Of a stretch of DNA of 64,000 nt, positions 20,266-42,843 are shown one piece after another. The notes beneath the pieces were generated by a model that ran no database searches, had not been told where the DNA came from, and worked only from the letters and a program-made list of their open reading frames with translations. Source of the DNA: Bifidobacterium breve (GTDB lineage: Bacteria > Actinomycetota > Thermoleophilia > Gaiellales > F1-60-MAGs149). The stretch covers positions 18,728-82,727 of the forward strand of contig CAMDVX010000001.1 of the NCBI GenBank assembly GCA_945877865.1, written 5' to 3'. The position numbers were made by a program, and so were the translations under genes. The first letter of the stretch is position 1; the number at the start of each line of letters is the position of its first letter.

Positions 20266-20287
20266 TGGTGCGTCCTTAGGGATTGTC

Positions 20288-24206: not shown

Positions 24207-24685
24207 CGCTTGCCTCCTGTCTCGTAGATCATGCGCGTTGACCCCACGGACAGCTCATCGCCTGGTCGGAGGGCCGTCTCGGCGGAGATGCGCTCGCCGT
24301 TGACGAACGTCCCGTTCGTCGACCCGAGGTCCGAGACCGTTGGCGAGCCGTTGCGGGCCCGCACGAGCGCATGACGGGCCGAGACGAACGTGTCGCCCTC
24401 CAGCATGGCGGCGGCCGACGGGTCACGCCCGAGCAGCACCTCGTCCGCGTCGAGCACGACCGCGGCGCCGACGGGGAGCACGTCGCTCGCGACGACGAGC
24501 AGGCGGCCAGCAGGCTTGGGCGCCTCCACCTTCGGCAGCGCGTCAAAGCCGTGGCCCGGGCTGAGGATCATGCTCTCTGCGGAGCCACGGACATCGCGAA
24601 TGGCCGTCCTCGCGATGCGCCAGACGAACAGGTAGAGCAGGGCGAGAACCCCGATCCGAAGGAGGAGTAGGGCCTGATCGACCAC
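24203..24685 (-). CDS. fhaB: FHA-domain protein FhaB/FipA-like
   Basis: N-terminal TM helix plus a C-terminal FHA domain (LGRDP......VSARHA....NG...V.DLGSTNGTFVNG). Confidence 0.85.
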   Translation of the reverse strand: MVDQALLLLRIGVLALLYLFVWRIARTAIRDVRGSAESMILSPGHGFDALPKVEAPKPAGRLLVVASDVLPVGAAVVLDADEVLLGRDPSAAAMLEGDTFVSARHALVRARNGSPTVSDLGSTNGTFVNGERISAETALRPGDELSVGSTRMIYETGGKR

Positions 24686-24688
24686 GGC

Positions 24689-27366: not shown

Positions 27367-27450
27367 GAGCGCCCGCGCTCGTTCCGAGCAGGAGCGGCTG
27401 GTATCGTGTCGAAGAGAGGGGGCGCGATCACGCTCCCCGATTCGCCATCT

Positions 27451-29126: not shown

Positions 29127-29270
29127 CGTGTCGTCGCTCCGATCGCCGCCGCCCCTGTGCGCATCGTCGATAGCTGGCAGCACCTGCGTAGGTTCGACCG
29201 AGGCGGTCGCCGCACCGGGCCAGTCAGGCAGGGCTGTTCGAGTGGGCGTGCTACCGTCGCGACGAGGGAC

Positions 29271-30773
29271 ATGACGGATACCGAGGTGACATCGACGACC
29301 CGCGCCGCGCGCCATCTGAGCCTGCTGTCGGAGACGGTGGGAGCCGTTACCAGCTCGCTGGATCTGGCCAAGGTGACCGAAGCCGTGGCGGTCGCCGTGG
29401 CTCGTGCGTTTGGAACGGACGCCTGCTTCGTGTACAGCTACGACGACGCGACGAATGATCTGGTGCTTCAGGCGGTCCACGGCACGCACGTTGAGGCCAC
29501 CGCGGGACCACCGCGCATGCAGGTCGGCGAGGGGCTCACCGGCTGGGCCGCCGAGACGCGCCAGCCCGTGGCGATTGCGGCAGATGCCCACCTCGATGCG
29601 CGCTTCAAGGAGTTTCCTAATCTGCCTGAGCGGCGCTTTCAGAGCCTCCTCGCGGTGCCGATCCTCGATCGCCGAGAGCGTCTCGCTGGCGCGATGAACG
29701 TCCGTACCGTCGAGCCACGGGAGTACCACCCTGACGAGATCGAGCTGCTCGAGACGATCGCGCGGCAGGTGGCGCAGGCGATTGAGAACGCCCGGCTCTA
29801 CGAGCGTTCCCAGCGCCGCGTGGCAGAGCTCGAGGCGCTGGGCAGCATCTCGCAGGCGGTTGCCGAATCGCTCTACCTCGAAGAGGCGTTAGCCCACATT
29901 GCTGATGCTGCTGCCCGCGCGGCGCATGCTGAGGTCTGCGCGCTCGTCCTCGATGGACCCGAGGGGTCTGCCGTCGCTCGGCGGTCCACGCTGGATGGGC
30001 CTGCGGACGCGGAGCTTGCCGCCCTCGGGCTGCGGGCGCCGGTCGAGGAGCCTGGCGTCTTCGCAGTGCCGCTCGCGTGGAAGGCGCGGCGCCTCGGAGC
30101 GCTCGTCGCGACGACGACCGACGCTCGGCAGTTCACGCCAGAGGAGAAGCTGCTGCTGCGATCTGTGGCCAACCAGGCGGCGGCAGCTGTCGAATCCGGC
30201 CGCGGCGTGATGCGGGGGATCGTCGCGCAGGAGATCCACCACCGCGTCAAGAACAACCTCCAGACGGTTGCGTCGCTGCTGCGGCTGCGCTCAGGGGGGC
30301 CCGACCCGGCCCGTGCGCTGGCCGACTCGGTGGACCGGATCCTCTCGATTGCAGAGGTGCACGATCTCCTCACCGCGAGCCGCGAGGGTGACGTTGACCT
30401 GTCGGATCTGGTGCGCCGAGTCTCTGCGATGCTCGGCCGCGGAATTGGCACGCGTCCGGCAGAGGAGACGATCGCGCACGTCGTGGTGCCGGGCGACGCA
30501 GCCACTGCCGTGGCGCTGATCTTCACCGAGCTGTATGCGAATGCCCTCGAGCACGGCGGAGGTGACGTCCGCGTTGCGCTGGGCCAGCGGGCCGGGGAGA
30601 TCGAGCTGATCGTCTCGGACAGCGGCCCAGGCCTGCCGGCCGACTTCGACCCCGCTAGCTCGCTGGGCCTCAAGATTGCGACCGCGCTTGCGGTCGACCA
30701 GCTGCACGGCCGGCTCGCGATTGAGGATGGCCGTCCGGGCGTCGTGGCGCGGCTCACCTGGGGTGCCGGATGA
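29271..30773 (+). CDS. pdtaS: cytoplasmic GAF-containing sensor histidine kinase (HisKA_2 type), PdtaS-like
   Basis: Trimmed to MTDTEVTS.... GAF-like regions, H-box EIHHRVKNNLQTVASLLRL, and an ATPase domain (ELYANALEHG...DSGPGLP). No TM segment. Coupled to an ANTAR regulator. Confidence 0.82.
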   Translation: MTDTEVTSTTRAARHLSLLSETVGAVTSSLDLAKVTEAVAVAVARAFGTDACFVYSYDDATNDLVLQAVHGTHVEATAGPPRMQVGEGLTGWAAETRQPVAIAADAHLDARFKEFPNLPERRFQSLLAVPILDRRERLAGAMNVRTVEPREYHPDEIELLETIARQVAQAIENARLYERSQRRVAELEALGSISQAVAESLYLEEALAHIADAAARAAHAEVCALVLDGPEGSAVARRSTLDGPADAELAALGLRAPVEEPGVFAVPLAWKARRLGALVATTTDARQFTPEEKLLLRSVANQAAAAVESGRGVMRGIVAQEIHHRVKNNLQTVASLLRLRSGGPDPARALADSVDRILSIAEVHDLLTASREGDVDLSDLVRRVSAMLGRGIGTRPAEETIAHVVVPGDAATAVALIFTELYANALEHGGGDVRVALGQRAGEIELIVSDSGPGLPADFDPASSLGLKIATALAVDQLHGRLAIEDGRPGVVARLTWGAG

Positions 30774-31348
30774 GGGTCCTGATTGCCGAGGATGAGACGA
30801 TCATCCGGCTGGACGTTCGTGCGCTGCTTGAGAAGGCGGGGCATCAGGTCGTCGCCGAGGCCCGCGACGGCGTGGAGGCGGTGGCGCTCGCAGCCGAGCA
30901 CGAGCCCGACCTGATCGTGATGGACGTCCGCATGCCGCAGCTCGACGGCATCGCCGCCGCGCGCGAGATCACGGCCGCCCGCGCGGTGCCGATCGTCATG
31001 CTGACGGCTCATGCCGAGGGTGATCTCGTCGCCCGTGCCTCGGAGGCAGGTGCCTTCGGATATCTCGTCAAGCCGTTTCGCGAGGTGGACCTGCTGCCGG
31101 CGATCGACACCGCGCGGGCGCGCTTCGACGAGCTGGCCGCCCTGCGGGGCGAGGCCGCTGACCTCGCCGAGGCGCTCGCCTCGCGCAAGGCGGTCGAGCG
31201 GGCGAAGGGCATCCTGATGCGCCAGGAGGGAATCGATGAGGCCGAGGCGTTCCGACGGATTCGCTCAGCCAGCCAGAAGACTGGGCGCCAGATGCGCGTC
31301 GTCGCCGAGGCGCTGATCGCCACGTATGCGCCAGCGGGTGAGGCATGA
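30770..31348 (+). CDS. pdtaR: response regulator with ANTAR RNA-binding output domain, PdtaR-like
   Basis: REC domain (MRVLIAEDE...DLIVMDVRMPQLDG...YLVKPF) followed by an ANTAR domain (LASRKAVERAKGILM...EAEAFRRIRSASQKTGRQMRVVAEALI). ATGA overlap with pdtaS. Confidence 0.88.
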   Translation: MRVLIAEDETIIRLDVRALLEKAGHQVVAEARDGVEAVALAAEHEPDLIVMDVRMPQLDGIAAAREITAARAVPIVMLTAHAEGDLVARASEAGAFGYLVKPFREVDLLPAIDTARARFDELAALRGEAADLAEALASRKAVERAKGILMRQEGIDEAEAFRRIRSASQKTGRQMRVVAEALIATYAPAGEA

Positions 31349-31638
31349 GCGCACCGCCAGACGTCGTTGAGCGCCGCAGCGGTGGCACCGGGACTGCGCT
31401 CGGTCCGCCCTGGCGGGTCATCGTTCTCAACGATGAGCACAACACCTTCGAGGGCGTCGCTCGCTCGCTGTCCGCGGTGCTACCGAACGTGGACTACCGG
31501 CGCGGGCTCACGTTTGCAAACCGCATTCATCAGTCTGGGCGGGCCATCGTTTGGACGGGGCACCAGGAGCTGGCGGAGCTCTACCACGAGCAGCTCGCGA
31601 GCCGCGGGCTGACGATGGCGCCGCTTGAGCAGGGCTAG
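31345..31638 (+). CDS. clpS: ATP-dependent Clp protease adaptor ClpS
   Basis: 97 aa. WRVIVLNDEHNTFEGVARSL...A....IHQSGRAIVWTG..ELAE matches the ClpS core. ATGA overlap with pdtaR. Confidence 0.82.
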   Translation: MSAPPDVVERRSGGTGTALGPPWRVIVLNDEHNTFEGVARSLSAVLPNVDYRRGLTFANRIHQSGRAIVWTGHQELAELYHEQLASRGLTMAPLEQG

Positions 31639-31645
31639 CGCGCGC

Positions 31646-32539
31646 TTACTGCGTCTGAAAGGAGAAGAGGCGCTGCACAATCGCCTCTGGTGTCGCCAGC
31701 CACACGCCCCGGTCGCGAAGACCGCTGAGCGTGGCGTTGTAGTCGGCCAATACGTCGGGCCGCGCGCCGTCAAAGCGTTGGATCGGCACGCTTAGCACGG
31801 CTGCACCGCCGGCGGCAAGCAGCTCCGTGAGTCCGGCCGTCGGACCACGGCCCAGCACAGGCAGCTCGACGAGCTCGACGGGCCGCTCCGTTGCGGAGTC
31901 CCAGCCGCGGGCAGGGAAGGCAGTGCCCCGACCGAAGCCCTCTCGGCTCGCGATGAGAATGCCGTCGCCCAGACCGAGCACGAAGCCGAGCGCGCGGACG
32001 TGCTCCTGCTCGCTCGCTGTCAGCAGGTCGAATGAGCGTACGGTGGAAACAACGCCGTGCCGCTGCTCGATCTCTGCGACATGCGCGTACGGCGCGATGA
32101 CGTCGGGTGGCTGTGGACGCCGAATGCGTGCCCGCAGACCAGCCGGCTCGGGTGGTGGCGGCGTGGCCTCGTGCAGCACAGCGACGGCGCAGGCTGCTCC
32201 CTGAGGCCACGGTGGTGTGACGAGCAGACGCTCGCTGCGGACCCAAGCGGCGACTCGCTGGCGGACCTCATCGACGGGGTTACGCCACGGCTCCTCGTGT
32301 GAGCGGCCGCAGAGCGCGTGATGGGCAAAGGCGATCGGATCCGCCTCCAACGGCAGCGAGCCTGGGGTGAGCCAGGCGTCTGCGGCGTACGGAAGGGCCG
32401 GGCACGGCCAATCGAGGATGACGCTCCCGGTGCGATTGACGCGGACGCCGCTGGAGGCCAGCAGCTCGGTCAGCGTCGCCTTCGCCTTCGTCCCGATGCT
32501 GCCAGGGGCGCCGATCGCCAGACGAACGACCTCGCTCAT
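31646..32539 (-). CDS. hypothetical protein (297 aa), co-operonic with the GT2 gene
   Basis: Coding-like composition and a 4-nt overlap with the upstream GT2 gene. No family recognised. Confidence 0.5.
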   Translation of the reverse strand: MSEVVRLAIGAPGSIGTKAKATLTELLASSGVRVNRTGSVILDWPCPALPYAADAWLTPGSLPLEADPIAFAHHALCGRSHEEPWRNPVDEVRQRVAAWVRSERLLVTPPWPQGAACAVAVLHEATPPPPEPAGLRARIRRPQPPDVIAPYAHVAEIEQRHGVVSTVRSFDLLTASEQEHVRALGFVLGLGDGILIASREGFGRGTAFPARGWDSATERPVELVELPVLGRGPTAGLTELLAAGGAAVLSVPIQRFDGARPDVLADYNATLSGLRDRGVWLATPEAIVQRLFSFQTQ

Positions 32540-33504
32540 CGAGCCACCGCGTGCGCGGCATTCCAGTCGGCGGCGCTCTCGCGCAGACCTGGTCCGGTTG
32601 GTCCGTGCAGGGCGTTGGTGAGGTGCAGCCGCAGCTCCTCCGCAGGCAGGCCGGGTCCCAGCCGTCCCAGCCGTCCCGTTCGCCCTGCAACGCGTGCGAC
32701 CCCGTTCATCGCTCCGTACTGGCCGACCAGCGCGAGCCGTGCGACGTCGCCGCCAAGGCCTGGGTGGTGCTTGGCCCAGTAGCGGCGACGGCTGCGCCAG
32801 AACTCAACGATGCGGCGTGCAGGGTCTGCCGCCGTGGAGGCGCGGACGTGGTGGCGCACGACGGCGCCCTGCACGATGTGCGTCTCGCCACCGCGGGCGG
32901 CGAGCCTTCGCTGCAGATCCGTCTCTTCGGAGAACATGTAGAAGCCCTCGTCGAAGGGGCCGACCGCGTCGATGCTCTCCTGCCGCAGGAGCAGCGCGCA
33001 GCCACTGGCCCAGTCGACCCGAGCCGCTGCAGCGCTTGGACGCTGCTCGATGCCTGCTTGTCCCAGCGTGGCGAGGCTGCGTAGGCAGGTCGCAGGGGTG
33101 GGGAAGCGAAAGGCCGTGGGCTGGTGGCGGCCATCGGGATAGGTGACGATCGGGGCGGCCACCGCCGCCTCTGGCACCGTCTCGAGGTGGCGAACGAGCT
33201 GATCGACCGCGCCGGGCTCTACGGTGGCGTCGTCGTTGAGGAGCAGGTACAGCGGCGCACCCGCACGCGCCATCAGCCGATTGTGGTTCGCTCCGAAGCC
33301 GTCACGGAACGTCTGCTGGATGAGCTCGACGTCAGGAAACCGAGCACGCACGGCGTCGCACGTCCCGTCCTCTGAGGCGTTGTCGAGCACGTGGATGGTG
33401 TGCGCAACGGAGGGCTTGCCCGCTTCGGTCAAGGCCGTGAGCGCCTCCAGCAGGAGGTCTCGGTTGCCGTGGGCGACGATCCCGACGGCGAGCCGCGTGC
33501 TCAC
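32536..33504 (-). CDS. family-2 glycosyltransferase
   Basis: Trimmed to the GTG at 33504, which forms a GTGA overlap with the epimerase stop. VGIVAHGNRDLL..L..L...........HVLDNASEDGT, LLNDDATVEPG and the GT-A fold pattern support the call. The track's longer N-terminus is an Arg/His-rich artefact. Confidence 0.8.
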   Translation of the reverse strand: MSTRLAVGIVAHGNRDLLLEALTALTEAGKPSVAHTIHVLDNASEDGTCDAVRARFPDVELIQQTFRDGFGANHNRLMARAGAPLYLLLNDDATVEPGAVDQLVRHLETVPEAAVAAPIVTYPDGRHQPTAFRFPTPATCLRSLATLGQAGIEQRPSAAAARVDWASGCALLLRQESIDAVGPFDEGFYMFSEETDLQRRLAARGGETHIVQGAVVRHHVRASTAADPARRIVEFWRSRRRYWAKHHPGLGGDVARLALVGQYGAMNGVARVAGRTGRLGRLGPGLPAEELRLHLTNALHGPTGPGLRESAADWNAAHAVAR

Positions 33505-34613
33505 CGCTCGAGGCCCCGCCGACGCAGCTCGTCCATGGCCTGGTCTACCCGATCGACGGCCTCTTGCCCGGACAACCACTGTGCGAGCTCTCCAAGCCCG
33601 TGGGCAACTTCGACCTCGGCCCGAAACCCGAGCACCTCGGCGGTGCGGGTGGGATCGCCGATGCAGTGGCGGATGTCGCCGGCGCGGTAGCGCCCCACGA
33701 CGTCGCACTCGATCGCTAGCCCGAGCCCGGAGGCGAGGCCGTTGGCCACATCGATGACGCTTGCTGGCCGGCCGGTGCAGACGTTGAGCGCATGGCCCGT
33801 GACGGTCGACTCCGTGGCCAGCTGGAAGGCGCGGGCGACGTCGGTGACGTGCACGAAGTCGCGCGTCTGGTGACCATCCTCGAACGCCACCGGTGCGTGG
33901 CCGTTGAGGAGTCGGCTGGCGAAGATCGCGCCGACGCCGGTGTAGGGATTGCTGAGCGCTTGGCGCGGTCCGTAGACGTTGAAGAGGCGCAGCGCCAGCG
34001 TGGGGATGGCGTAGGCCGCGCCGACCGAGAGGCACAGCTCCTCGTGGTCGCGCTTCGTCACGGCGTAGACGCTGGTTGGTCGCAGCGGCTTGTCCTCGCC
34101 GGTCGGCTCGGAGACGAGCCGCTCACCGGCCTCCGTCTCGAGCTCCCAGCGACGCTCCGCGAGCTGGTTCTCCGGGCGCAGGTTTGGCGCGAGTCCACGC
34201 TCACCCGTGACCGAGTTCGCATACTGGCCCTCACCGTAGATCGACATCGACGACGCCACGACGAGGCGTTTGATGCGAGCTCGGCGCTCGACTAGCTGCT
34301 CGAGCAGCACGGCGCAGCCCGTCGAGTTGACGTCGACGTAGCGCCGGATCTCGTACATCGACTGGCCGACGCCGACGACGGCTGCGAGATGGACGACCGC
34401 GTCGATGTCGTCGAGCGCGCGGCCGACCGCCGATTCGTCGCGAATGTCACCCACCACGAGCTCGACGGCGGGGTCGAGGTAGTCGGGTGCGCCGCTCGGG
34501 TGCACCTGCGGATCGAGAGCGTCGAAGGCCCGCACGTGATGGCCCGCAGCGAGCAGGCGATCCGCCAGATGCGAGCCGATGAAGCCGGCTCCGCCAGTGA
34601 CCAAGACGCGCAT
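33501..34613 (-). CDS. NAD-dependent sugar-nucleotide epimerase/dehydratase (SDR family)
   Basis: MRVLVTGGAGFIGSHLADRLL Rossmann motif, catalytic SVYAVTKRDHE (YxxxK), 370 aa. Confidence 0.88.
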   Translation of the reverse strand: MRVLVTGGAGFIGSHLADRLLAAGHHVRAFDALDPQVHPSGAPDYLDPAVELVVGDIRDESAVGRALDDIDAVVHLAAVVGVGQSMYEIRRYVDVNSTGCAVLLEQLVERRARIKRLVVASSMSIYGEGQYANSVTGERGLAPNLRPENQLAERRWELETEAGERLVSEPTGEDKPLRPTSVYAVTKRDHEELCLSVGAAYAIPTLALRLFNVYGPRQALSNPYTGVGAIFASRLLNGHAPVAFEDGHQTRDFVHVTDVARAFQLATESTVTGHALNVCTGRPASVIDVANGLASGLGLAIECDVVGRYRAGDIRHCIGDPTRTAEVLGFRAEVEVAHGLGELAQWLSGQEAVDRVDQAMDELRRRGLER

Positions 34614-34666
34614 TGCCTAATCGTACGGGGGCGGCCGCAGGCTGGGCGTCGGATCGCCCCCGCGCG

Positions 34667-36154
34667 CTAGCGCAGAGGCTTTGGTCGCGCCGTCGCGTCG
34701 CTGATCGCCCGCAGCGGCGCAAGCTGGGCGATGGGCGGTGCGACGTGACGGTCGAGGGTGATCGCGCTCGCTGACCGAATGGCGCGCTGCTGCAGGCTGG
34801 CGTTGTCGAGCAGGAGCACCTGGCCGCCACGCGCCACGAACGCACGCAGCCGCTGAAAGAGCCCGTCGGTCCAGACGGACGCGCCGCTGATCACCACGAT
34901 TCGTGCTGCTGCCGGCACTCCGTGGTCTTCGATGAACTGGTCGGAGACGGCGCCAACACGGCCGCCAAGGCCAGCCTGGACGGCCGCCGCCGTCCGCGCC
35001 AGCGCTGCTAGCGGCGTGGTGATGGAGGGATCGAACGGGCGGTCGAGGGCGAGCGGCTGTGGGGGTAGGTCGGGGTACCCAGAGAGGTCCGCATCGGCGG
35101 GGTTGACGGCCTGCCACGAGTAGAGGGGCAGCAGCATCAGGGTGCGGGCCTGTCCGGCGACGCCTTCGGGCGCCCAGCCCTGCCAGCCACCGCCGGCGAT
35201 CGTGACGGCGTAGAGACCGGGCTTGGGGCGGGGCAGTGCGACGGCACCAGGAGCACCCTTGGCCTGCCCGACGACGCGGCCGGGGAAGCTCATGCCCGGC
35301 TCGTGTCGGACGAGCTGGACGTCGGAGAGGAGGGTGACGGGCTGGAGCGAAGGCTGCAGCGCGACCGTTTCGACGCCGACCACGCGGGCCGGGGCGAGCT
35401 GGCCGGAGTCGACCACGGCCGGGGCATCAATGCGGTTGCCCCCGCGGTCTTCTGCCTGCCAGCCGACGATGTAGGAGCCGGGCCCGACGAAGGGGCCGGT
35501 CGTGGTCAGCGGCTGCCCACCCTTGTCGGCGGGCCATTGCATCAGCTTGCGCTGCGTCCACTTCAGCCCAGACTCCCGTCGGATCAGGCGAGCCGTGCCG
35601 TCCGTCTGGACCTGACGCACGACGAGCCGGAGGCGCACAGGCTCGTTGGCGCTGAGCGTGAAGCTGTAGACGCCTATGCCGCCGGCGACGCCCGGTGTGA
35701 TCCGCTGCCCCGCCTTCGCCGTTGAGCCGACCTCCGGCGGTGTGGCGTCGAGTCGGAGCGCATCAGGAATTCGGATCGAGCGGTGCTCCTGCTTGAGCTC
35801 GATTGCGAAGCGGTAACTGCCATCCGCGGCGCGTCCGCCACCGGGGAGGGAGCCGTCCCAGGTCGCGCGGATGCGCCTTCCCGTCTGCTGGGTCTCGGCG
35901 AGCGCGATCTGGTGATCGTCGCTGTCGAGGATCACGACGCTCGCGGTGCCGGTCGCCCGTAGACCAACCGTGAGTGTGGCGGCACGTCGCTCAGGCTTGA
36001 AGGCGTCGGGTGAGAACGTCTGGTTGCTGATGGTAGGCGCGATGATCGGTGACGGGGCATTCTTGACGAGCTGAGCCCGTACGAACACGATGCCCGCTCC
36101 GAGCAACAGGACGACTACGAGGAGGGCGGCCAGCATCCGAACGAGTCTCTCCAC
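34667..36154 (-). CDS. membrane-anchored extracytoplasmic protein with FlgD-Ig-like domain
   Basis: N-terminal TM helix (MLAALLVVVLLLGAGIVFV). FlgD-Ig-like segment (FSPDAF....ATLTVGL..TGTASVVILDSDDHQI......TGRRIRATWDG......ADGSYRFAIEL). The remainder is unassigned. Confidence 0.5.
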   Translation of the reverse strand: MERLVRMLAALLVVVLLLGAGIVFVRAQLVKNAPSPIIAPTISNQTFSPDAFKPERRAATLTVGLRATGTASVVILDSDDHQIALAETQQTGRRIRATWDGSLPGGGRAADGSYRFAIELKQEHRSIRIPDALRLDATPPEVGSTAKAGQRITPGVAGGIGVYSFTLSANEPVRLRLVVRQVQTDGTARLIRRESGLKWTQRKLMQWPADKGGQPLTTTGPFVGPGSYIVGWQAEDRGGNRIDAPAVVDSGQLAPARVVGVETVALQPSLQPVTLLSDVQLVRHEPGMSFPGRVVGQAKGAPGAVALPRPKPGLYAVTIAGGGWQGWAPEGVAGQARTLMLLPLYSWQAVNPADADLSGYPDLPPQPLALDRPFDPSITTPLAALARTAAAVQAGLGGRVGAVSDQFIEDHGVPAAARIVVISGASVWTDGLFQRLRAFVARGGQVLLLDNASLQQRAIRSASAITLDRHVAPPIAQLAPLRAISDATARPKPLR

Positions 36155-36193
36155 GCCGCTAATCGTAGGGGCGGCTCGTGCTCCGAGCCCTCG

Positions 36194-36640
36194 CTACTCG
36201 TCTGCCAGCAGCCGGCGAGCGGCATCGCGGAGGCCACGCAGCACGGCAAGTGCCTCTGGCCACGCGGAGCCGGGGACTATCACGTGGTCGCGCGAGGCCG
36301 TACCGACGAGGATGATCGGGACGCTGCGCTCGGCGAGCGCGCCGCTGATCGTGGACGCGAACCCGGTCAGGTCGGGTGGCAGCGGCGCCAGCAGCAGGAT
36401 TACGCGGAGGTCGTCCTGCCGCGTGTCTGCTGCCGGCAGCGTGTTGGCGAGCACGGTGCGAATGACGAAGGTCGTCTCCACTGGATCGTCGATGCGGGCG
36501 CCGAAGGCATCCGCCAAGAGCTCGGGCGGGGTCGCTGGCGCGCAGCCGCGGGAGTAGCCGAGCAGGGTGAACTCGTCGTCAAGCAGCATCGGCTCAAGCG
36601 CCGCGAGCGCCTCAACCAACGGTGGCGGCTGCTCGGTCAT
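36194..36640 (-). CDS. hypothetical protein, possible ACT-like ligand-binding domain
   Basis: 148 aa with a 4-nt overlap with the upstream FAD oxidoreductase. The C-terminal VPIILVGTASRDHVIVPGSAWPEALAVL resembles the ACT_7-type motif. This is a weak call. Confidence 0.4.
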   Translation of the reverse strand: MTEQPPPLVEALAALEPMLLDDEFTLLGYSRGCAPATPPELLADAFGARIDDPVETTFVIRTVLANTLPAADTRQDDLRVILLLAPLPPDLTGFASTISGALAERSVPIILVGTASRDHVIVPGSAWPEALAVLRGLRDAARRLLADE

Positions 36641-37713
36641 GGCAGCTCGTCGAGCTCCTCTGCTCGCAGCACTTGGAGGTAGCGGTGGCGGCCAAGCTCG
36701 ACCTCGGGCGGCGGACCGCTGCGGGCGCCTGGGCCAATGCGCTTCGTTGCCATTCGACGAATGGCAAACTCGGGCAGCAGCCGAATCCAGCGCTGCGCCT
36801 GGTTGAGGCGGTCGTAGCCTGGTCTATGCGAGGCATGCAGCGCTGCGTAGCGGGCGTGGGCGTCGGTCGCTGTGAGCCGACCGTCGAGCGAGGCGGCCAG
36901 CAGCCGGCCCGCAGCGGCACCGAAGTAGGCTGCCGGCCTGATGCCTTCGAGCGTCACGGGCAGGGCCTGGCCGGCGGCATCGCCAACGAACACGACGGGA
37001 CCCTGCACTGGCTCGCGTGGCGTGCAGGCGATGGCGCCGCCATGGTGCTCTGTGCCTGCGCCGATCTGCTCGCGCTGGCGGAGACCGGCCATGGCCGGCT
37101 GCAGTGGCTCGCGGGTAAAGGAGCCGACGCCGGCCCGGACATGGCTGCCAGCCGGAAACGACCAGCCGTAGCCCGCCTTCAGCAGCGACTTGGCGACGTA
37201 GAAGGCGAAGCCATTCGTCGTGGGGGCGGCTCCTGCTGGCACGTGGTCCTCCGTGCCGATGACGAGCCCGTCGTGCGACCCGCGCGTTGGCCCGCCGGCG
37301 TCAAGCACCCGCCGCCAGCCAGAGGCGTCGATCAGGTGGGTGGCTGCGAGCCGCTCTCCACCGGCACCAACTGCGCTGTCGCCGTCTCGTCCAACGACGC
37401 GAATCTGCTCGAAGCGGGCGTCGCACTGGGCGGCGAGCGCGCGGCAGCAGGCCTCGTAGTCGATCACGCAGTACGCCTCGGGCAGGTTGAGGTTCCACGC
37501 CGAGGAGCCGATCCGAAGGTGCATGCGCGTGTCCTCGTGGAGCACCGCTTCGGCGGCGCCGAGCCACTCGATCAGGCGCGTCGGCAGGGCACACGCCGAG
37601 GTCTGATGGGCGCCGATGGGTGAGCGGTCGACGATCAGCACGTCGTGGCCGCGTAGCTCTCGTGCGGCCACGAGGCCGGCGAACGACGCACCAACGATTA
37701 GACAGTCCGTCAT
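36637..37713 (-). CDS. FAD-dependent oxidoreductase (geranylgeranyl-reductase-like family)
   Basis: N-terminal dinucleotide motif DCLIVGASFAGLVAARELRG..VLIVDR and a later DASGWRRVL segment. 358 aa. Confidence 0.68.
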   Translation of the reverse strand: MTDCLIVGASFAGLVAARELRGHDVLIVDRSPIGAHQTSACALPTRLIEWLGAAEAVLHEDTRMHLRIGSSAWNLNLPEAYCVIDYEACCRALAAQCDARFEQIRVVGRDGDSAVGAGGERLAATHLIDASGWRRVLDAGGPTRGSHDGLVIGTEDHVPAGAAPTTNGFAFYVAKSLLKAGYGWSFPAGSHVRAGVGSFTREPLQPAMAGLRQREQIGAGTEHHGGAIACTPREPVQGPVVFVGDAAGQALPVTLEGIRPAAYFGAAAGRLLAASLDGRLTATDAHARYAALHASHRPGYDRLNQAQRWIRLLPEFAIRRMATKRIGPGARSGPPPEVELGRHRYLQVLRAEELDELP

Positions 37714-37716
37714 CGT

Positions 37717-38898
37717 CTACCTCGTCGCCGCGGCTGCTGCACCGGCTCGTCGTCCAAACACGCAGACGTCGAGCAGCGAGTTGCCCATCATGCGGTTGCG
37801 TCCGTGCACGCCGCCTGTAATCTCGCCAGCTGCCCAGATGCCAGGGACGGAGGTGCGGCCGTCTTCGTCGATGATCAGACCGCCATTTTGGTAGTGCAGG
37901 ACGGGATAGACGAGGATAGGCTCGGTCAGCGGATCGATGCCAGCCTTGCGGTAGCGCTTGAGCATGTAGGGGAATGAGATCTCAGCATCCGCTGCGGCCA
38001 CCGGCCGGCAGTCGAGGTGGACGGCAGGGCGGCCGGCGGGCGTCGTCAGCCCGCGGCCCTCAGCACACTCGCGGGTGATTGCCTCGGCCACGACGTCGCG
38101 TGGCGCGAGCTCGTCGACGAACTGCTCGCCCGCCGCGTTCCGCAGCAGCGCACCGTAGGCACGGGTCGTCTCGGGCACGGCGTAGCCAGCCAGCCCTGCC
38201 GGCCAGGCTGCTCCGGTGGGATGGCGCTGCAGCGAGTCGTGGTCGCGCTCGGCGCAGCCTGCGGCAACGGCGAGCGCGGCTACCTCGCCGGTTGCACCAT
38301 CGCCGTTGGTGGAGAGCTCGCCCGTCTCCTCGGCGGCTCGCTTGCAGCGACCCCCGGCGGCCAGCACGATTGCGCCTGCCTCGATCAGCACCTGCTCGCC
38401 GTTGCGCTCGATCAGCGCTGCGCCATCGCTGGCCAGTGCCACCAGCGGCGCGTGATCGAGCACCACGATGCCGTCGCGTAGGGCCACGGCCTCGCGGAGG
38501 GCCGAGGCGATGGCGAGCCCGGTACGGTCGCCGACCTGAAGCAGCCGCTGCCGGGTTGCGCCGCCGCAGCGGGCGCGCCGCAGCGAGCCGTCGCTCTCGC
38601 GGGTAAAGGTGACGCCAAGGGAAGCGAGCCACGCGATCGTCGCCGGGCCCTCCTCGACGAGGCGCCGCGCCAGCACGGCGTCGGCCGTGTCATGCGACGA
38701 GCGCATCACGTCGGCAAAGTGCGTCGCGACATCGTCGTCGCTACCGACTGCGGCCTGAATGCCGCCTTGCGCCTTGGCCGTGTTGCAGGAGGCGACGCCG
38801 AGCTTCGTCGCGATGACGACGGAGGCACCGGCATCGCAGGCGGCGATCGCGGCCGCGAGGCCGGCGCCACCCGAGCCGATCACGAGCACGTCGGGCAT
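37717..38898 (-). CDS. fumarate reductase / succinate dehydrogenase / L-aspartate oxidase-type flavoprotein (short form)
   Basis: DVLVIGSGGAGLAAAIAA FAD motif, NTAKAQGGI, LQRHPTG (the family's HPT motif) and GGVHGRNRMMGNSLLD. It lacks the long C-terminal helical domain. Confidence 0.75.
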   Translation of the reverse strand: MPDVLVIGSGGAGLAAAIAACDAGASVVIATKLGVASCNTAKAQGGIQAAVGSDDDVATHFADVMRSSHDTADAVLARRLVEEGPATIAWLASLGVTFTRESDGSLRRARCGGATRQRLLQVGDRTGLAIASALREAVALRDGIVVLDHAPLVALASDGAALIERNGEQVLIEAGAIVLAAGGRCKRAAEETGELSTNGDGATGEVAALAVAAGCAERDHDSLQRHPTGAAWPAGLAGYAVPETTRAYGALLRNAAGEQFVDELAPRDVVAEAITRECAEGRGLTTPAGRPAVHLDCRPVAAADAEISFPYMLKRYRKAGIDPLTEPILVYPVLHYQNGGLIIDEDGRTSVPGIWAAGEITGGVHGRNRMMGNSLLDVCVFGRRAGAAAAATR

Positions 38899-38900
38899 CG

Positions 38901-39671
38901 CTACGTGTCGAGGCCGAGGATGAACGACATCGTGTCGCTCCTCAGGCCGCGTCGCAGCGTCTCGAGTGGGATGACCTCATCTGGCGGGATGTTGCCGAGG
39001 TTGACGTCCGGCCCGAGGTGCTTGATGAACCATGCCTGCTGCGCCTTCTGCGGTGCCTCGAAGAGCAGGTTGGAGATGTCGATCTCGTGAGCGATCTCGT
39101 CGATCAGGCCGCTGCGGACCTCGCCCGAGGTGCGGAAGATGCCCGCCGTTCCCGATTCGCGCGCCTCGGTAATGACCTTCCAGGCGCCAGCGGCCTGCTC
39201 CTCCTTGATCCACTCGACCCACTGGTACGGCGCGAAGATCTCCTCGGCATCCTTGGAGCCAACCTCGCTGAGGACCTGGAAGTCCTCGGCGAACATGCTG
39301 ATCAGCTCGAGCTTACGTTCGCGAGGCATGTCGATCGTGCCGTCGGAGACCTCGACGCACGCGAAGCCCTGTGCCGACAGCCACTGGCGATACTCGTTGA
39401 TGCGCCCGCGGGCCTCCGCTACCTCCAGCAGGGTGCCGCCGCAGACGACGGGGATTCCGAGCGAGCTGTAGAGGTCGAGCTTCTCCCGCAGCATGCCGGT
39501 AACGTACGACGTCCCCCAGCCGAGCTTGACGATGTCAATGAAGCCACCGGACATCTCAACCATGGAGCGGATATCGGCGAGGCCGAGCCCCTTGTCCATC
39601 ACGTGCGTGAGCCCGACGTTGCGAGGCTTTGTCACCCGCGGGGGCAGGCCGAGGAAATCGGGTGCACTCAT
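38901..39671 (-). CDS. comA: (2R)-phospho-3-sulfolactate synthase (ComA) family protein
   Basis: 256 aa. PPRVTKPRNVGLTHVMDKGLG......M.E.SGGFIDIVKLGWGTSYV and VEVSDGTIDMP match the ComA/YitD family pattern as I recall it. Confidence 0.82.
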   Translation of the reverse strand: MSAPDFLGLPPRVTKPRNVGLTHVMDKGLGLADIRSMVEMSGGFIDIVKLGWGTSYVTGMLREKLDLYSSLGIPVVCGGTLLEVAEARGRINEYRQWLSAQGFACVEVSDGTIDMPRERKLELISMFAEDFQVLSEVGSKDAEEIFAPYQWVEWIKEEQAAGAWKVITEARESGTAGIFRTSGEVRSGLIDEIAHEIDISNLLFEAPQKAQQAWFIKHLGPDVNLGNIPPDEVIPLETLRRGLRSDTMSFILGLDT

Positions 39672-39718
39672 GGGGCAAGCGTACCAATCGGCGGGTGGTG
39701 CGCTGGCGGCTGCGGGCG

Positions 39719-41074
39719 TTAAGCCCAGTCGACGGTGCTTGCGGCTGGCAGGCTGATCACGACGCGGCAGCCACCGCCTGGTGCGTCGGCAATCGTCACG
39801 GTCCCGCCATGGGCTGTAATGTCTTGCCGGACGATTGCCAGCCCGAGGCCCGAGCCCGGCCGATTCTGCACGTCCCGGCCGCGACGGAAGCGGTCGAACA
39901 TGGCATCTCGGTCGTCGAGTGGGATACCCGAGCCACTATCGTCGACGGTAATTCCTTCGGGTCGGACCGTCACGGTGACGGGCGCACCGCCATGAAGCAG
40001 CGCGTTCTCTACGAGGTTGCCGACGGCGCGCTCCAGCCGGTTTGGGTCTCCTGTGAACGTCACCGCTTCGGTGTCAAGGCGTATCTCGGCCTGTGGGCGC
40101 CGGGCGCGGGCACGGGCCACCACGTCGGCGGCGAGGTCGTCTAGCCGCAGCACCTCGGACTCCTCAACGGGGCGTGCGCCGCGAGCGAGGTCAACGATGC
40201 TCGTGATCATGCGGGACACCTCATCGATCTCTCGGCCGAGGGCGATCGCAAGGTGCTGCCGATCCTCGCCGCTGAGCGCGCTGCTCGGGTCGCCGAGGGT
40301 CTCAACGTCGGTTCGCAGCGCCGTCAGCGGCGTGCGAAGCTCGTGCGCCGCATCGGCGACGAGGTGATCCTGCGCGTTGCGCGCCTCCTCGAGGCCTTTC
40401 AGCAGGGCATTGACTGCGCCGGCCAGGCGGGCTGACTCTGCGCCGCCTTGCTCTGGCAGGCGGCGGGAGAGGTCGCGGTCGCGGGCGGCGTCCTCCACGT
40501 TGCTTGCGAGCCGGCGCAGCGGTGCAAGGCCGCGTTCGGCAACGGCGATGCCGAGGATGATCGCTGCCACGACGCCGCCGATTCCCGCTAGCAGCAGCAG
40601 GCGCTGCAGGCGCGTCAGGGTCGACTCAACCTCCGTGACCGGGCGCCCCACCTGGAGCGCGAGGTCCTTGCGGAGCCCCGCCACGAGCACCCGGACGGGC
40701 ATGCCATCGACGATCACGGTGCCCAGCGACGTGCCGCCCCTCTGTGCGATCTCGGCGGCGTTTGGGCCGATCGGGATTGCCTGCTCGCCTGCCGGTAGGC
40801 GGATCACCTTGCCGGCGCCGCTGATGAGCTCGGCGAAGATGCCGGGCGCACCAAAGCGGCCGCTCTGCTGGCCGCCGAAGTTGGCTCCACCGGCGCCTCC
40901 GGTGCCGCTCCGTGCCGCATCCCGGGCCTCGCGCACTGCCGCTGCCCGCAGCGAGTCGTCGATCTCCGTATAGAGGGACCGCTTCGTCACCTGGTACGTG
41001 ACGACGCTGCCGACGCCGAAGGTGATGATCACCGCGAGCGAGGCGGCGATGGCGATGCGTACCCTTAGGCTCAT
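39719..41074 (-). CDS. sensor histidine kinase (2 TM, HAMP, HisKA, HATPase_c)
   Basis: H-box VADAAHELRTPLTAL, N/G boxes (NLVENALLHG, DSGSGIP, GSGLGLAIV), and two TM helices flanking a ~130-aa sensor loop. 4-nt overlap with the regulator gene. Confidence 0.88.
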   Translation of the reverse strand: MSLRVRIAIAASLAVIITFGVGSVVTYQVTKRSLYTEIDDSLRAAAVREARDAARSGTGGAGGANFGGQQSGRFGAPGIFAELISGAGKVIRLPAGEQAIPIGPNAAEIAQRGGTSLGTVIVDGMPVRVLVAGLRKDLALQVGRPVTEVESTLTRLQRLLLLAGIGGVVAAIILGIAVAERGLAPLRRLASNVEDAARDRDLSRRLPEQGGAESARLAGAVNALLKGLEEARNAQDHLVADAAHELRTPLTALRTDVETLGDPSSALSGEDRQHLAIALGREIDEVSRMITSIVDLARGARPVEESEVLRLDDLAADVVARARARRPQAEIRLDTEAVTFTGDPNRLERAVGNLVENALLHGGAPVTVTVRPEGITVDDSGSGIPLDDRDAMFDRFRRGRDVQNRPGSGLGLAIVRQDITAHGGTVTIADAPGGGCRVVISLPAASTVDWA

Positions 41075-41751
41075 CGGGAGGGCCGCAGCACGTAGCCGAC
41101 GCCGCGGACCGTCTCAATGAGGCGCGACCCGCCTTCGTCCTCGAGCTTGCGACGAAGGTAGCCAACGTAGACCTCCACGCCGTTTGAGGAGGTGCGCGCG
41201 TCCATGCCCCAGACGCGGTCGAGGATGACCTCGCGGGTCAGAACGCGCTCCGGGTTGCGGAGGAACAGCTCGAGCAGGAGGCGTTCGGTCCGAGTCAGGT
41301 CGAGGATCCGGTCGCCGCGTGCCGCTGTGTGGGCCGCTAGGTCGAGGCGGACGCCAGCCACGTCCAGCACGTCGTCCTGCTGCCCGGGGTCGGCGAGAGA
41401 TCGCCGGCAGATGGCGCGCAGGCGGGCATCAAGCTCGACGGTGGCAAACGGCTTGACGAGGTAGTCGTCGGCCCCGGCGTCGAGGCCCTCGACTCGATCA
41501 GCGACGGCATCGCGAGCCGTCAGCATGAGGATCGGCGTTCGCACGCCGTTCTCGCGGAGGGTCCGACATATATCGAAGCCGCTGCCGTCGGGTAGGTTGA
41601 CGTCGAGGACGATCGCCTCGAGGTCGTCGGCCACGGCCAGCCGAGCCTCGGCGGCCGTCGCAGCCTCGACGATGTCGTGCCCGCGCGCGCGCAGGGCACG
41701 GCGGATGGCAGATCGGACTGCCTCGTTGTCTTCGACGATGAGTATGCGCAT
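41071..41751 (-). CDS. OmpR/PhoB-family response regulator
   Basis: Trimmed to MRILIVEDNE. REC domain (D..LDVNLPDGSG, YLVKPF) followed by a winged helix (LT.TE..LLELF..N...V.TRE.I...VWG......SN.VEVYVGYLRRKL). Confidence 0.9.
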   Translation of the reverse strand: MRILIVEDNEAVRSAIRRALRARGHDIVEAATAAEARLAVADDLEAIVLDVNLPDGSGFDICRTLRENGVRTPILMLTARDAVADRVEGLDAGADDYLVKPFATVELDARLRAICRRSLADPGQQDDVLDVAGVRLDLAAHTAARGDRILDLTRTERLLLELFLRNPERVLTREVILDRVWGMDARTSSNGVEVYVGYLRRKLEDEGGSRLIETVRGVGYVLRPSR

Positions 41752-41811
41752 GATGATTGCCAAGTAGCGGCGGCTGGCCACGAGTATGCCGGGTGGGGCC
41801 GCCGGCGGTTG

Positions 41812-42843
41812 CTAGGGCTGGCCTCCAGCTGCGGCCCCACCCGCAGGCTTGGGTGGTGGAGGGCTTCCGTCCTGCTGCGGCCGGCCTGCTCCCTGATTTC
41901 CATCCACTCGATGGTGGCCGCCTTGTCCACTCTGGCCCGCTTGGCCGGTCTGGCCTGCTTGACCGCTCTGACCGCTCTGACCGCCCTGGGCGCCCTGACC
42001 ACCCTGTTCGCCTTGGCTTGCCGGGCGGCTCTGCGTGCTCTGCCCGCCCTGATCTGCCGGGCTGCTCTGCGTGCCTTGTCCGCCTTGGCCTTGCTGGCCG
42101 CTCTGACCAGCCGGAGCCTGCGGCTCCCGCACGGTGATCGGAGCGCCGCTGTCAATCAGCTCTGCGATCTGATTGGACTGCTCCTGCGTGATGGTCTTCG
42201 CCGCGACGAGGGCATCCAGCCGCTGCCCGGCGAGAGCCGAGAGGAGGGCGCTGTCGGCCTCGGCGAGTCGTCCGGCAGCGATCAGGGCGGTGACGTCGGT
42301 GGCCTGATTCGCGGAGAGTGCGCCAGCCTGTTGACCGCGCCGAACCTTGGCTGTCAGCTCGGCAGCGCTCGCGAGGCGCGTCACCTCTCCGGGCTTGGGC
42401 CCGCCGATGCCGATTGGCACGCCGGCGCCGACGAGGCTCGCAATCTGGGCAGACTGATCGCTGCTAATGGCGCTGGCGGTCACGAGCTCATCGAGACGCT
42501 GCGTCACTGAGGACGACCGCAGAGACTGCATTGCCTGCACGAAGTCGCCGTTCGTGATCTGCGTCTTGATGGTGGTGGCCTCCGCAGGGGTGAGGGTCCC
42601 GGCCTGCGCAAGCTCGTCGATGCGGGCGGCGAGCTGCTCGGCCTGAGCCTCCGTGAGCGGCTTGCTGACCGCCTCCTGCGGCACGCCGAGCTTGGCTGCG
42701 AGCGCCTGCTCAAACTCCTGCTGCCGCTGGCTCTGATCATCGTTCGAGCCAATGCCCGAGGCGAGGACGGGACCACCGATGCCGGCGAGCCCAATGCCAG
42801 CGGCGACGATGCCAATGACGATGTTTCTCTTGCTGCGTCGCAC
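41812..42843 (-). CDS. secreted/anchored LTXXQ-repeat protein with Gly/Gln-rich C-terminal tail
   Basis: Re-annotated start GTG at 42843, preceded by GAAGGAGG (revcomp of 42849-42856). N-terminal hydrophobic segment NIVIGIVAAGIGLAGIGGPVLA. Repeated motifs: LTEAQAEQL, LTPAEATTI, ISSDQSAQI, LSANQATDV, ITQEQSNQI. The track's 710-aa ORF upstream part is antisense to fabF. Confidence 0.6.
   Translation of the reverse strand: MRRSKRNIVIGIVAAGIGLAGIGGPVLASGIGSNDDQSQRQQEFEQALAAKLGVPQEAVSKPLTEAQAEQLAARIDELAQAGTLTPAEATTIKTQITNGDFVQAMQSLRSSSVTQRLDELVTASAISSDQSAQIASLVGAGVPIGIGGPKPGEVTRLASAAELTAKVRRGQQAGALSANQATDVTALIAAGRLAEADSALLSALAGQRLDALVAAKTITQEQSNQIAELIDSGAPITVREPQAPAGQSGQQGQGGQGTQSSPADQGGQSTQSRPASQGEQGGQGAQGGQSGQSGQAGQTGQAGQSGQGGHHRVDGNQGAGRPQQDGSPPPPKPAGGAAAGGQP
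41911..42121 (-). repeat. coding low-complexity (GQ/SGQ) microsatellite-like tract
   Basis: Reiterated ctgacc/ctggcc/ctgccc hexamers encode ...GQSGQQGQGGQGTQ...GQGAQGGQSGQSGQAGQTGQAGQSGQGG. Confidence 0.8.

Follow-up and report, generated by a model that had tools for sequence, protein, structure and literature searches.

A conserved ComA–flavoprotein gene pair in Gaiellales and a candidate C3 sulfonate pathway beside surface-glycan genes

To our knowledge, phosphosulfolactate synthases of the ComA family (EC 4.4.1.19) have three established uses: coenzyme M (CoM) biosynthesis in archaea, CoM biosynthesis in bacteria and the formation of spore sulfolactate in Bacillus. Here we ask what such an enzyme might do in a 64,000-nucleotide stretch of DNA (hereafter called the window; positions 18,728–82,727 of contig CAMDVX010000001.1, assembly GCA_945877865.1) from an uncultured bacterium that named homologues assign to the Gaiellales, class Thermoleophilia; the Gaiellales are abundant actinobacteria of soils and fresh waters. 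A ComA-family gene in the window is closely followed by genes for a short fumarate reductase (FRD)-like flavoprotein, a geranylgeranyl reductase (GGR)-like flavin adenine dinucleotide (FAD) protein and an ACT-domain protein. An initial annotation of the sequence had proposed that these four genes form a single module for an undescribed organosulfonate pathway. We find that ComA and the short flavoprotein, rather than the four genes together, form the conserved core. In related loci this pair stands beside lyase, sulfite-supply and glycan genes, a context that suggests a candidate route to 3-sulfopropionate joined to a surface glycan.

Results

ComA is paired with a short flavoprotein across Gaiellales

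The ComA-family gene (38901–39671, minus strand) encodes a protein of 256 amino acids (aa). The profile search that the initial annotation had named as a check on this call returned a full-length match to PF02679, with 294 bits (E 1e-87; cut-off 25.2) over profile positions 2–243 of 243. The score against the TIGR03849 (arch_ComA) model is 260 bits, just short of the archaeal equivalog cut-off of 280. The ComA of a relative outside Gaiellales (locus L101) scores 266 bits and is likewise below this cut-off, and the name of the model suggests that it was built for archaeal sequences. Among solved structures, the protein matches Bacillus subtilis YitD (1u83, deposited as a phosphosulfolactate synthase) with 207 bits over residues 7–248 and Methanocaldococcus jannaschii ComA (1qwg) with 166 bits. 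ComA is also the best-conserved protein of the run, with 85–89% identity among species that share the gene order of the window (arrangement A, below).

The next gene on the same strand (37717–38898) begins after a gap of only two nucleotides, read from the sequence as TAG-cg-ATG, and encodes a 393-aa flavoprotein of the FRD, succinate dehydrogenase (SDH) and NadB superfamily. This protein matches PF00890 (FAD_binding_2) with 211 bits, and its best NCBIfam matches, TfrA, NadB and SdhA, all fall far under their cut-offs; no curated model covers it. The substrate-site motifs that had been picked out in the initial annotation are present, with HPT at residues 226–228 and HGRNR at residues 365–369, and the profile searches agree with the assignment of this short protein to the superfamily.

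A scan with the flavoprotein, restricted to one genome per species, yielded 80 loci, all from metagenome-assembled genomes (MAGs); those with a specific label are Gaiellales or Thermoleophilia, and one of the 80 was deposited under the label Bifidobacterium sp. ComA lies 0–1.7 kb from the flavoprotein gene in 74 of these loci; the remaining six are on contigs truncated on the side concerned. Look-ups that started from ComA gave the same pairing in every case. Neighbouring genes were compared by tblastn against the 80 loci, with proteins of the window and of its relatives as queries. The GGR-like and ACT genes proved to be present in 23 loci, so the neighbourhood analysis does not bear out a four-gene module: the conserved core is the ComA–flavoprotein pair.

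The pair occurs in four arrangements. Arrangement A, which comprises the window and about 20 species with flavoproteins 78–86% identical, has the order response regulator, histidine kinase, ComA, flavoprotein, GGR-like protein, ACT protein, FlgD-Ig-like protein, short-chain dehydrogenase/reductase (SDR), family 2 glycosyltransferase (GT2) and a protein without a family. Arrangement B (12 species) runs flavoprotein, ComA, PHP phosphoesterase, 3′-phosphoadenylyl sulfate (PAPS) reductase and a protein without a family, with FlgD-Ig and Wzy_C genes further on. Arrangement C (40 species) begins with a HIT protein, the flavoprotein, fumarase alpha (FumN, PF05681), fumarase beta (FumC, PF05683) and ComA, after which come the sulfite-supply genes for PAPS reductase, adenylyl sulfate (APS) kinase, ATP sulfurylase and TauE, then FlgD-Ig and two Wzy_C genes; many members have a divergent set upstream that consists of a protein without a family, GNAT, SDR and GT2. 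In arrangement D (L034/L096 and L035), ComA and the flavoprotein are separated by a few kb from a GGR-like/ACT pair that lies beside Wzy_C genes, and in L034/L096 an aldo-keto reductase gene follows ComA and the flavoprotein.

The small HIT-family protein heads the sulfonate operon in L056 (9506–9952) and in 30 other arrangement-C loci. It is HinT-like at 93 bits, below the cut-off, and could act on APS or another nucleotide, or on a phosphoester.

Long-read MAGs carry frameshifts in the FRD-like and fumarase genes (L001, 8793–9936; L006; L082, 10045–13447), and in one long-read assembly the flavoprotein gene is frameshifted and hence uncalled. Because of such frameshifts, public gene calls miss or split these genes, which would hide the association between ComA and the flavoprotein from annotation-based surveys.

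A proline substitution marks the ComA-linked flavoproteins

Fumarate bound to FrdA is oriented by His232, His355 and Arg390 and twisted into the transition state by Thr244, with Arg287 as the proton donor (PMC5773532). We aligned E. coli FrdA and E. coli NadB with 116 members of the flavoprotein family. The window protein retains FrdA residues His232, Glu245, Arg248, Arg287, His355 and Arg390 as H226, E243, R246, R267, H335 and R369, respectively. Thr244 is replaced by Pro242, as it is by proline in every member of the short clade, and this residue stands within the family-invariant sequence PETTRAYGA (the FrdA counterpart is TEGCRGEGG). Further differences set the window protein apart: the covalent-FAD histidine of FrdA, His44, is lost (Asn39), NadB Glu121 corresponds to Cys111 (RCGGA, family-invariant), and a four-residue insertion with an invariant Trp-Pro follows HPTG. 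The C-terminal helical domain is absent, the protein stopping at residue 393 right after VFGRRAG, and no gene for an SdhB- or FrdB-like iron–sulfur partner is adjacent to it. An identity as L-aspartate oxidase (NadB) was ruled out, as Glu121 is missing, the TIGR00551 score of 242 falls below the cut-off of 453, and there are no nadA or nadC neighbours.

An exhaustive HMMER search of cluster representatives added further clusters of short (roughly 400 aa) flavoproteins at 35–46% identity, and a metagenome scan with an alignment of these distant proteins yielded 80 more loci. Proteins with the proline measure 390–421 aa where complete, apart from one over-extended open reading frame (ORF) call, and have ComA alongside whenever the flank suffices. 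Proteins of the threonine type (a few have serine), in which the motif is usually TEKxR, measure 530–580 aa where complete; many are followed by fumarase genes, and none has ComA within 10 kb.

When only loci with at least 3.5 kb of flank on both sides are counted, ComA is found no further than 1.74 kb away in 65 of 66 proline-clade loci and in none of 17 threonine-retaining long-clade loci (Fisher's exact p ~9e-17, shared ancestry ignored). The sole exception is L100, whose relative L105 has ComA. The pairing of ComA with an FRD-type flavoprotein, first noticed in the window, is thus real and deeply conserved. The combination of this proline and a short length can serve to recognize members of the ComA-linked subfamily.

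The clade that keeps Thr244 (TEKxR) was observed on low-GC and human-gut metagenome contigs. Its proteins, of 530–560 aa, are extended by about 90 aa at the N terminus; examples are L126, L151, L153, L158, L159, L161, L162 and L167, with the match at about 10001–11176 where the flank allows. Fumarase alpha and beta genes often lie 3′ of these genes, and ComA never does. One relative of this clade, P0252, carries an N-terminal Fer2/Fer4 domain.

Two lyase types and sulfite-supply genes adjoin the pair

Class I fumarase alpha and beta genes lie next to the pair, in the order flavoprotein, FumN, FumC and ComA, in 40 of the 80 Gaiellales loci. The same genes recur outside Gaiellales in L099 (GC content 0.47), where the cassette side reads flavoprotein, fumarase alpha, fumarase beta, ComA, His_Phos_1 phosphatase, PIG-L and ATP-grasp, and the upstream side GT4, methyltransferase, GT9, CapD-like and Wzy_C.

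In three other loci outside Gaiellales the lyase belongs to the Lyase_1 family. L101 (GC content 0.54) has the order flavoprotein, Lyase_1/ASL_C2, ComA, a weak ATP-grasp-like protein, Wzy_C and sulfotransferase, and upstream of these Bac_transf, an epimerase, a Polysacc_synt (Wzx-type) flippase and a weak polysaccharide-deacetylase match. In L105 (GC content 0.37), ComA and the flavoprotein precede a 1,007-aa fusion, a single ORF (2371–5394; Ga0233438_10013345) that joins an XcbC-like Lyase_1/ASL_C2 protein to an AMP-binding (adenylate-forming) domain. L100 (GC content 0.35) runs flavoprotein, Lyase_1, GT2 and DegT aminotransferase, with sulfotransferase, methyltransferases, epimerase, PAPS reductase and ATP-grasp upstream. 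The lyase gene is therefore placed between flavoprotein and ComA in L101, after both in L105 and directly after the flavoprotein in L100.

Against the NCBIfam XcbC model, the Lyase_1 proteins score 461 and 429 bits (cut-off 575), compared with 265 and 273 bits against ArgH. XcbC has been shown experimentally to eliminate phosphate from phosphosulfolactate, yielding sulfoacrylate, in bacterial CoM synthesis (PMC9457059). The gene context suggests that two unrelated lyase solutions occupy the same slot by the flavoprotein, and that both may converge on sulfoacrylate, the sulfonate analogue of fumarate.

The PAPS reductase, APS kinase and ATP sulfurylase genes of the relatives are consistent with sulfite as the predicted substrate of ComA. 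The description of ComA as an orphan in the initial annotation fits the lineage of the window, but not most of its relatives, in which these three genes and TauE adjoin. Indeed, tblastn across the 64-kb window found no homologues of the fumarases, the XcbC-like lyase or the HIT, PHP and His_Phos_1 proteins, and none of PAPS reductase, ATP sulfurylase, TauE, PIG-L or the cassette-type ATP-grasp protein. Genes for the lyase, phosphatase, sulfite supply and ligase must be located in another part of this genome, or else it lacks them.

The pair is repeatedly set among surface-glycan genes

The link to envelope glycans proposed in the initial annotation gains comparative evidence, as rearranged forms of the locus show it again and so do unrelated low-GC organisms. 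Genes that repeatedly turn up near the pair encode Wzy_C, FlgD-Ig, SDR, GT2/GT4/GT9, Wzx-type flippase, PIG-L and ATP-grasp proteins. Arrangements B and C, too, have FlgD-Ig proteins after the sulfonate operon, next to Wzy_C genes; in several arrangement-C loci that were checked, FlgD-Ig and Wzy_C come after TauE, and a pair like the SDR and GT2 of the window lies upstream. There, an SDR copy that is 55–58% identical to that of the window stands divergent upstream of the ComA operon, accompanied by a GT2 that is 37–42% identical.

A deacetylase and a ligase form a second recurring theme. In arrangements B and C, every retrieved flank that extends far enough has genes for a PIG-L protein (52–57% identity) and an ATP-grasp ligase (39–42%) of the L099 type at 6–8 kb downstream from ComA; the former was seen in 27 loci and the latter in 12. 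In a subgroup of arrangement C, an L101-type ATP-grasp-like gene is divergent from the flavoprotein gene. The L101 deacetylase is a weak match to Polysacc_deac_1, below the cut-off. Counting the adenylating domain fused to the lyase, three ligase types go with the deacetylase theme, two of them of ATP-grasp kinds. We infer from this theme, which suggests it, that a carboxylate product may be activated and joined to a freed sugar amine.

In the window itself, the glycan block follows the ACT gene on the minus strand. It encodes a membrane-anchored FlgD-Ig-like protein (34667–36154), recognized by a weak FlgD_ig match of 20.4 bits, below the cut-off, and by an N-terminal hydrophobic segment; an SDR nucleotide-sugar epimerase/dehydratase (33501–34613; PF01370, 175 bits); a 322-aa GT2 glycosyltransferase (32536–33504 in the public gene call; PF00535 and PF13641), whose gene overlaps that of the SDR by 4 nucleotides; and, as the last gene of the block, a 297-aa protein (31646–32539) that matches no Pfam or NCBIfam family. 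The gaps of 39 and 53 nucleotides that the initial annotation gave for the start of this block are those between the longest ORFs; in the public gene call, the FlgD-Ig protein begins 18 nucleotides later. Its SDR and GT2 calls are solid and its FlgD-Ig call is weak.

Among the best 60 of 77 solved matches, the closest relatives of the SDR are of the GalE, WbpP, dTDP-glucose dehydratase and UDP-glucuronic acid epimerase types. A sulfite-using UDP-sulfoquinovose synthase (SQD1/SqdB) was considered for this protein and rejected, no SQD1 being among those 60 matches. The 297-aa protein is conserved in arrangement A and in L103, and a profile of five homologues found no match in the Protein Data Bank (PDB). 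It was also tried as the missing deacetylase or ligase and set aside, as no Pfam, NCBIfam or PDB-profile match was found and hhalign does not relate it to the deacetylase-like protein of L101.

The GGR-like and ACT genes belong to the envelope block

The GGR-like gene (36637–37713, minus strand) starts three nucleotides after the flavoprotein gene (TAG-acg-ATG) and shares a 4-nucleotide ATGA overlap with the ACT gene (36194–36640). Direct reading of the sequence thus confirms the close packing of the four minus-strand ORFs given in the initial annotation. The 358-aa GGR-like protein scores 71.5 bits (E 9e-20) against TIGR02032 (GG-red-SF), a value that does not reach the cut-off of 158.8. Its AlphaFold model has a mean predicted local distance difference test (pLDDT) score of 94.7, and it comes closest to archaeal geranylgeranyl reductases: Foldseek ranks 3oz2 first (template modelling score 0.79), followed by the Sulfolobus GGR structures 3atq and 4opu; a profile search of the PDB again finds 3oz2. 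Identity with solved GGRs is 17–19%. The protein carries GASFAG, an invariant Cys41, GYGWSFP at 181 and GDAAG at 244, and a dinucleotide-binding motif, a conserved cysteine, GYGWxFP and GDAAG are what we take to be the signature of the geranylgeranyl reductase family. Fold and motifs therefore agree with the earlier call of a GGR-like FAD enzyme. In all, 90 homologues were detected, and the distant ones are solitary in unrelated contexts.

The call of an ACT-like protein, 148 aa in length, also stands, albeit at the borderline: residues 75–135 match ACT_7 (PF13840) with 30.8 bits against a cut-off of 27, and a single-sequence structure model is poor (pLDDT 46). The ACT gene is the constant partner of the GGR-like gene. 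The two stay together in arrangements A and D as well as in L103, and the 4-nucleotide overlap is found in the window and in L096.

Locus L103, in which the GGR-like protein is 50% identical to that of the window, is informative for this pair. It reads GGR-like, ACT_7, FlgD-Ig, SDR, GT2 and a protein without a family, then ClpS, an ANTAR regulator and a GAF kinase, and the 983 nucleotides available upstream hold an opposite-strand adh_short gene and no ComA–flavoprotein pair. Because this block exists without ComA and the flavoprotein, the GGR-like/ACT pair belongs to the envelope block. The locus in the window is thus two juxtaposed units, the ComA–flavoprotein pair and the GGR-like/ACT pair with the FlgD-Ig, SDR, GT2 and 297-aa protein genes. 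Our best guess from the modelled fold is that the GGR-like protein may reduce an isoprenoid carrier or a lipid.

Converging on the end of the glycan block, at 29157–31638 on the plus strand of the window, are genes for a GAF/HWE histidine kinase, an ANTAR regulator and ClpS. These three also come after the glycan block in L011–L013 and in L103.

A candidate route and its alternatives

We give about an even chance to the reading in which a C3 sulfonated acid is made by a biosynthetic cassette that has ComA and the short flavoprotein as its conserved core, with a full route that would end in glycan-ligated 3-sulfopropionate. Judging by its family membership, ComA would convert phosphoenolpyruvate (PEP) and sulfite to phosphosulfolactate. 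Sulfoacrylate could then be formed in either of two ways to which the gene context points. The XcbC-like enzyme of some relatives would eliminate phosphate directly, or a phosphatase would be followed by a class I fumarase-like alpha/beta dehydratase acting on (R)-sulfolactate, which by Cahn–Ingold–Prelog bookkeeping is the spatial analogue of L-malate. The presence of a phosphatase with the fumarase-type route in L099, and its absence from loci of the XcbC type, are as this model predicts. The short flavoprotein, which keeps the hydride and proton machinery of FRD and has proline in place of the clamping Thr244, would reduce sulfoacrylate to 3-sulfopropionate. Finally, as the loci of relatives suggest, an ATP-grasp or adenylating ligase may activate the acid and attach it to a de-N-acetylated sugar of a surface glycan that would be built and exported by the products of neighbouring genes.

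Of this proposed route, the window codes only for the ComA step and the reduction. The idea in the initial annotation of a sulfonate that mimics fumarate is strongly favoured by the lyases next to the pair in relatives, but the window itself has no lyase gene. Its further suggestion that the pathway is undescribed agrees with our finding no account of one in the openly searchable literature, a scope outside which subscription journals lie.

Several observations weigh against the proposed route. FumN scores 322 bits against the NCBIfam fumarate hydratase equivalog, over the cut-off of 276, and the TTxxR and K substrate motifs are intact in the beta subunit, whose substrate site shows nothing diagnostic; these proteins could therefore simply form a conventional fumarase. 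In arrangement B, a PHP phosphoesterase gene is present but no lyase gene is close by. Within flanks of 10–12 kb, arrangement A has no lyase, phosphatase, sulfate-activation gene, PIG-L or non-Ddl ATP-grasp. Our association counts take the Gaiellales loci as independent, ignoring shared ancestry. In addition, the openly searchable literature holds no report of a 3-sulfopropionyl glycan substituent.

The loci that lack a lyase bear on a different reaction for the flavoprotein. If it were a flavin-dependent dehydrogenase of sulfolactate or phosphosulfolactate that replaces ComC, the product would be sulfopyruvate or its enol phosphate, leading to cysteate-, sulfoacetaldehyde- or taurine-type compounds. 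The order ComA, PHP phosphoesterase and flavoprotein in arrangement B would suit this scheme, as would the absence of a nearby lyase from arrangements A and D, and so would the oxidation of malate to enol-oxaloacetate by SDH and FRD flavoproteins. We nevertheless consider it unlikely, because most loci, and three further lineages, have one of two unrelated lyase types abutting the flavoprotein gene, no sulfopyruvate-decarboxylase-like or aminotransferase gene is conserved near the pair, and the sole thiamine pyrophosphate (TPP) enzyme in the window is of the 5-guanidino-2-oxopentanoate decarboxylase type and lies 20 kb off. It is also quite unlikely that the four packed genes serve one pathway in which the GGR-like and ACT proteins supply the missing elimination or a second redox step where fumarase genes are lacking. 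Tight packing, with its 3-nucleotide gap and 4-nucleotide overlap, argues for such a pathway, as do the occurrence of GGR-like/ACT within 6 kb of the ComA–flavoprotein pair in L034, L035 and L043 and the fact that, of the 80 loci, none of the 23 with the GGR-like gene is among the 40 with FumN. However, this mutual exclusion tracks lineage and may be simple synteny; 57 of the 80 loci lack the GGR-like/ACT genes, as do L099, L100, L101 and L105; L103 keeps them and their downstream block with no ComA–flavoprotein pair directly upstream; and the fold points to isoprenoid-type reductases.

The fumarase score that counts against sulfoacrylate formation also raises the prospect of ordinary central metabolism beside ComA, with the flavoprotein as a soluble fumarate reductase or L-aspartate oxidase next to a fumarase; the related long FRD-like clade, which pairs with FumN and FumC in the absence of ComA, points the same way, and TauE, named a sulfite exporter, would fit a catabolic operon that releases sulfite. 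We regard both forms of this explanation as improbable. The adjacency of flavoprotein and ComA survives four rearrangements and contigs with GC contents from 0.35 to 0.73, the fumarase is swapped for an XcbC-like, phosphate-eliminating lyase, and NadB Glu121 and FrdA Thr244 are both gone, with no nadA or nadC nearby. As for catabolism, ATP sulfurylase, APS kinase and PAPS reductase are present, which fixes the direction as that from sulfate to sulfite. Least probable of all is a variant of CoM biosynthesis, even though ComA (XcbB) and, in some relatives, the XcbC-like lyase represent the first two steps of the bacterial CoM pathway (PMC9457059). Among the annotated neighbours in every locus examined, no equivalent of XcbD, the pyridoxal phosphate (PLP) enzyme XcbE or XcbA was found; the matches to the XcbD model are weak (37–48 bits against a cut-off of 600) and fall on the XcbC-like lyases themselves, and the setting is glycan assembly rather than alkene or epoxide metabolism or methanogenesis.

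Upstream genes and the rest of the window

Contrary to the initial annotation, the gene run starts before ComA. Upstream on the same strand are a HisKA sensor kinase gene (39719–41074; PF00512 and PF02518), whose stop lies 47 nucleotides before the ComA start, and a gene for a 226-aa OmpR-type response regulator (41071–41751 in the public gene call; PF00072 and PF00486) that overlaps the kinase gene by 4 nucleotides. Directly upstream of this regulator–kinase pair is the gene for a 343-aa protein (41812–42843) with no family match and a Gln/Gly/Ser-rich low-complexity C terminus. In arrangement-A relatives, the regulator is conserved at 82–88% identity and the kinase is kept upstream of ComA. 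A scan of positions 31000–42500 for promoters and terminators gave nothing above shuffled expectation. In keeping with the initial annotation, neither the ComB nor the ComC family is among the genes annotated in the window.

The remainder of the window appears to be housekeeping, with SUF genes and hisD, a division cluster, a TPP decarboxylase, an old yellow enzyme (OYE)-type flavoenzyme, rpiA and pgl. The wall and division cluster (17327–27366, minus strand) encodes D-Ala-D-Ala ligase, a PASTA Ser/Thr kinase, a penicillin-binding protein transpeptidase, FtsW/RodA, a PP2C phosphatase, two FHA proteins and a second Ser/Thr kinase. The two-domain OYE/FadH-type flavoenzyme (54678–56708, minus strand) has the mycofactocin-system OYE_2 as its best match, with 489 bits against a cut-off of 793. 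The TPP enzyme (58975–60609, plus strand) was tried as a sulfopyruvate decarboxylase or Xsc and rejected, as it passes the 5-guanidino-2-oxopentanoate decarboxylase subfamily model (606 bits, cut-off 500). Two ORFs with coding-like GC content at third codon positions, of 606 aa (13205–15025, minus strand) and 424 aa (27355–28629, plus strand), have no Pfam or NCBIfam match.

Discussion

Somewhat below even chances, and hence tentatively, we suggest that in Gaiellales, and in bacteria scattered over other phyla, the reductive branch of the tricarboxylic acid cycle has a sulfonate counterpart, in which the short flavoproteins would be the first sulfoacrylate reductases and the product would serve as an N-acyl-like anionic substituent of glycans. 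If this is true, the locus would represent a fourth branch of phosphosulfolactate synthase use, in which either the C3 sulfonate would be new among natural products or sulfoacrylate would gain a new use. It would also define a new substrate class in the fumarate reductase superfamily, marked by the change of Thr244 to proline, a length of about 400 aa and the lack of the C-terminal domain, and it would add to bacterial envelopes a new anionic decoration with a permanent negative charge. Since the cassette is found in most sampled species representatives of Gaiellales, it could have a bearing on the sulfur cycle and on surface chemistry in soils and lakes.

Among known systems, the B. subtilis yisZ-yitABCD genes form a sulfolactate operon. 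Arrangement C resembles it in joining ATP sulfurylase, APS kinase and PAPS reductase with ComA, but has no ComB and instead includes fumarase alpha and beta, the FRD-like flavoprotein and the HIT protein; the proposed end product, moreover, is not sulfolactate. The archaeal CoM route through ComA, ComB, ComC and ComDE has the first enzyme family in common with the cassette, which lacks ComB, ComC and ComDE and resides in an actinobacterial host. With FrdA, SdhA, NadB, TfrA and Fcc3, the short flavoprotein shares the FAD_binding_2 fold with a capping domain, the set of two histidines and two arginines and the Glu/Arg proton path. It differs from FrdA, SdhA and NadB in its length of about 400 aa and in having no C-terminal helical domain, covalent-FAD histidine or iron–sulfur partner.

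In mycothiol and bacillithiol synthesis, a PIG-L deacetylase (MshB/BshB) acts before an ATP-dependent ligase. The PIG-L and ATP-grasp genes that lie side by side near the sulfonate genes of relatives suggest a similar de-N-acetylation and re-acylation of an amino sugar. The likeness has its limits: the ligase is of another family, the Wzy_C, flippase and glycosyltransferase context indicates a polymer, and the window lacks both genes.

The closest parallel is the Xcb pathway of Xanthobacter autotrophicus, in which the ComA homologue XcbB comes first and makes phosphosulfolactate (PMC9457059), as ComA would in the cassette. An XcbC-like lyase of the aspartase/fumarase superfamily is also found in the relatives L100, L101 and L105. 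In contrast to the Xcb system, the cassette has no XcbD, XcbE or XcbA and the window no XcbC-like gene; sulfoacrylate, which a cysteine-adding lyase takes up in the Xcb pathway, would pass to the FRD-like flavoprotein in the proposed cassette; and the setting is surface-glycan assembly. Compared with these systems, the cassette would be a sulfonate pathway that begins with phosphosulfolactate synthase, as do the Xcb, yit and archaeal routes, and continues with a new reductive step towards what is probably a new destination.

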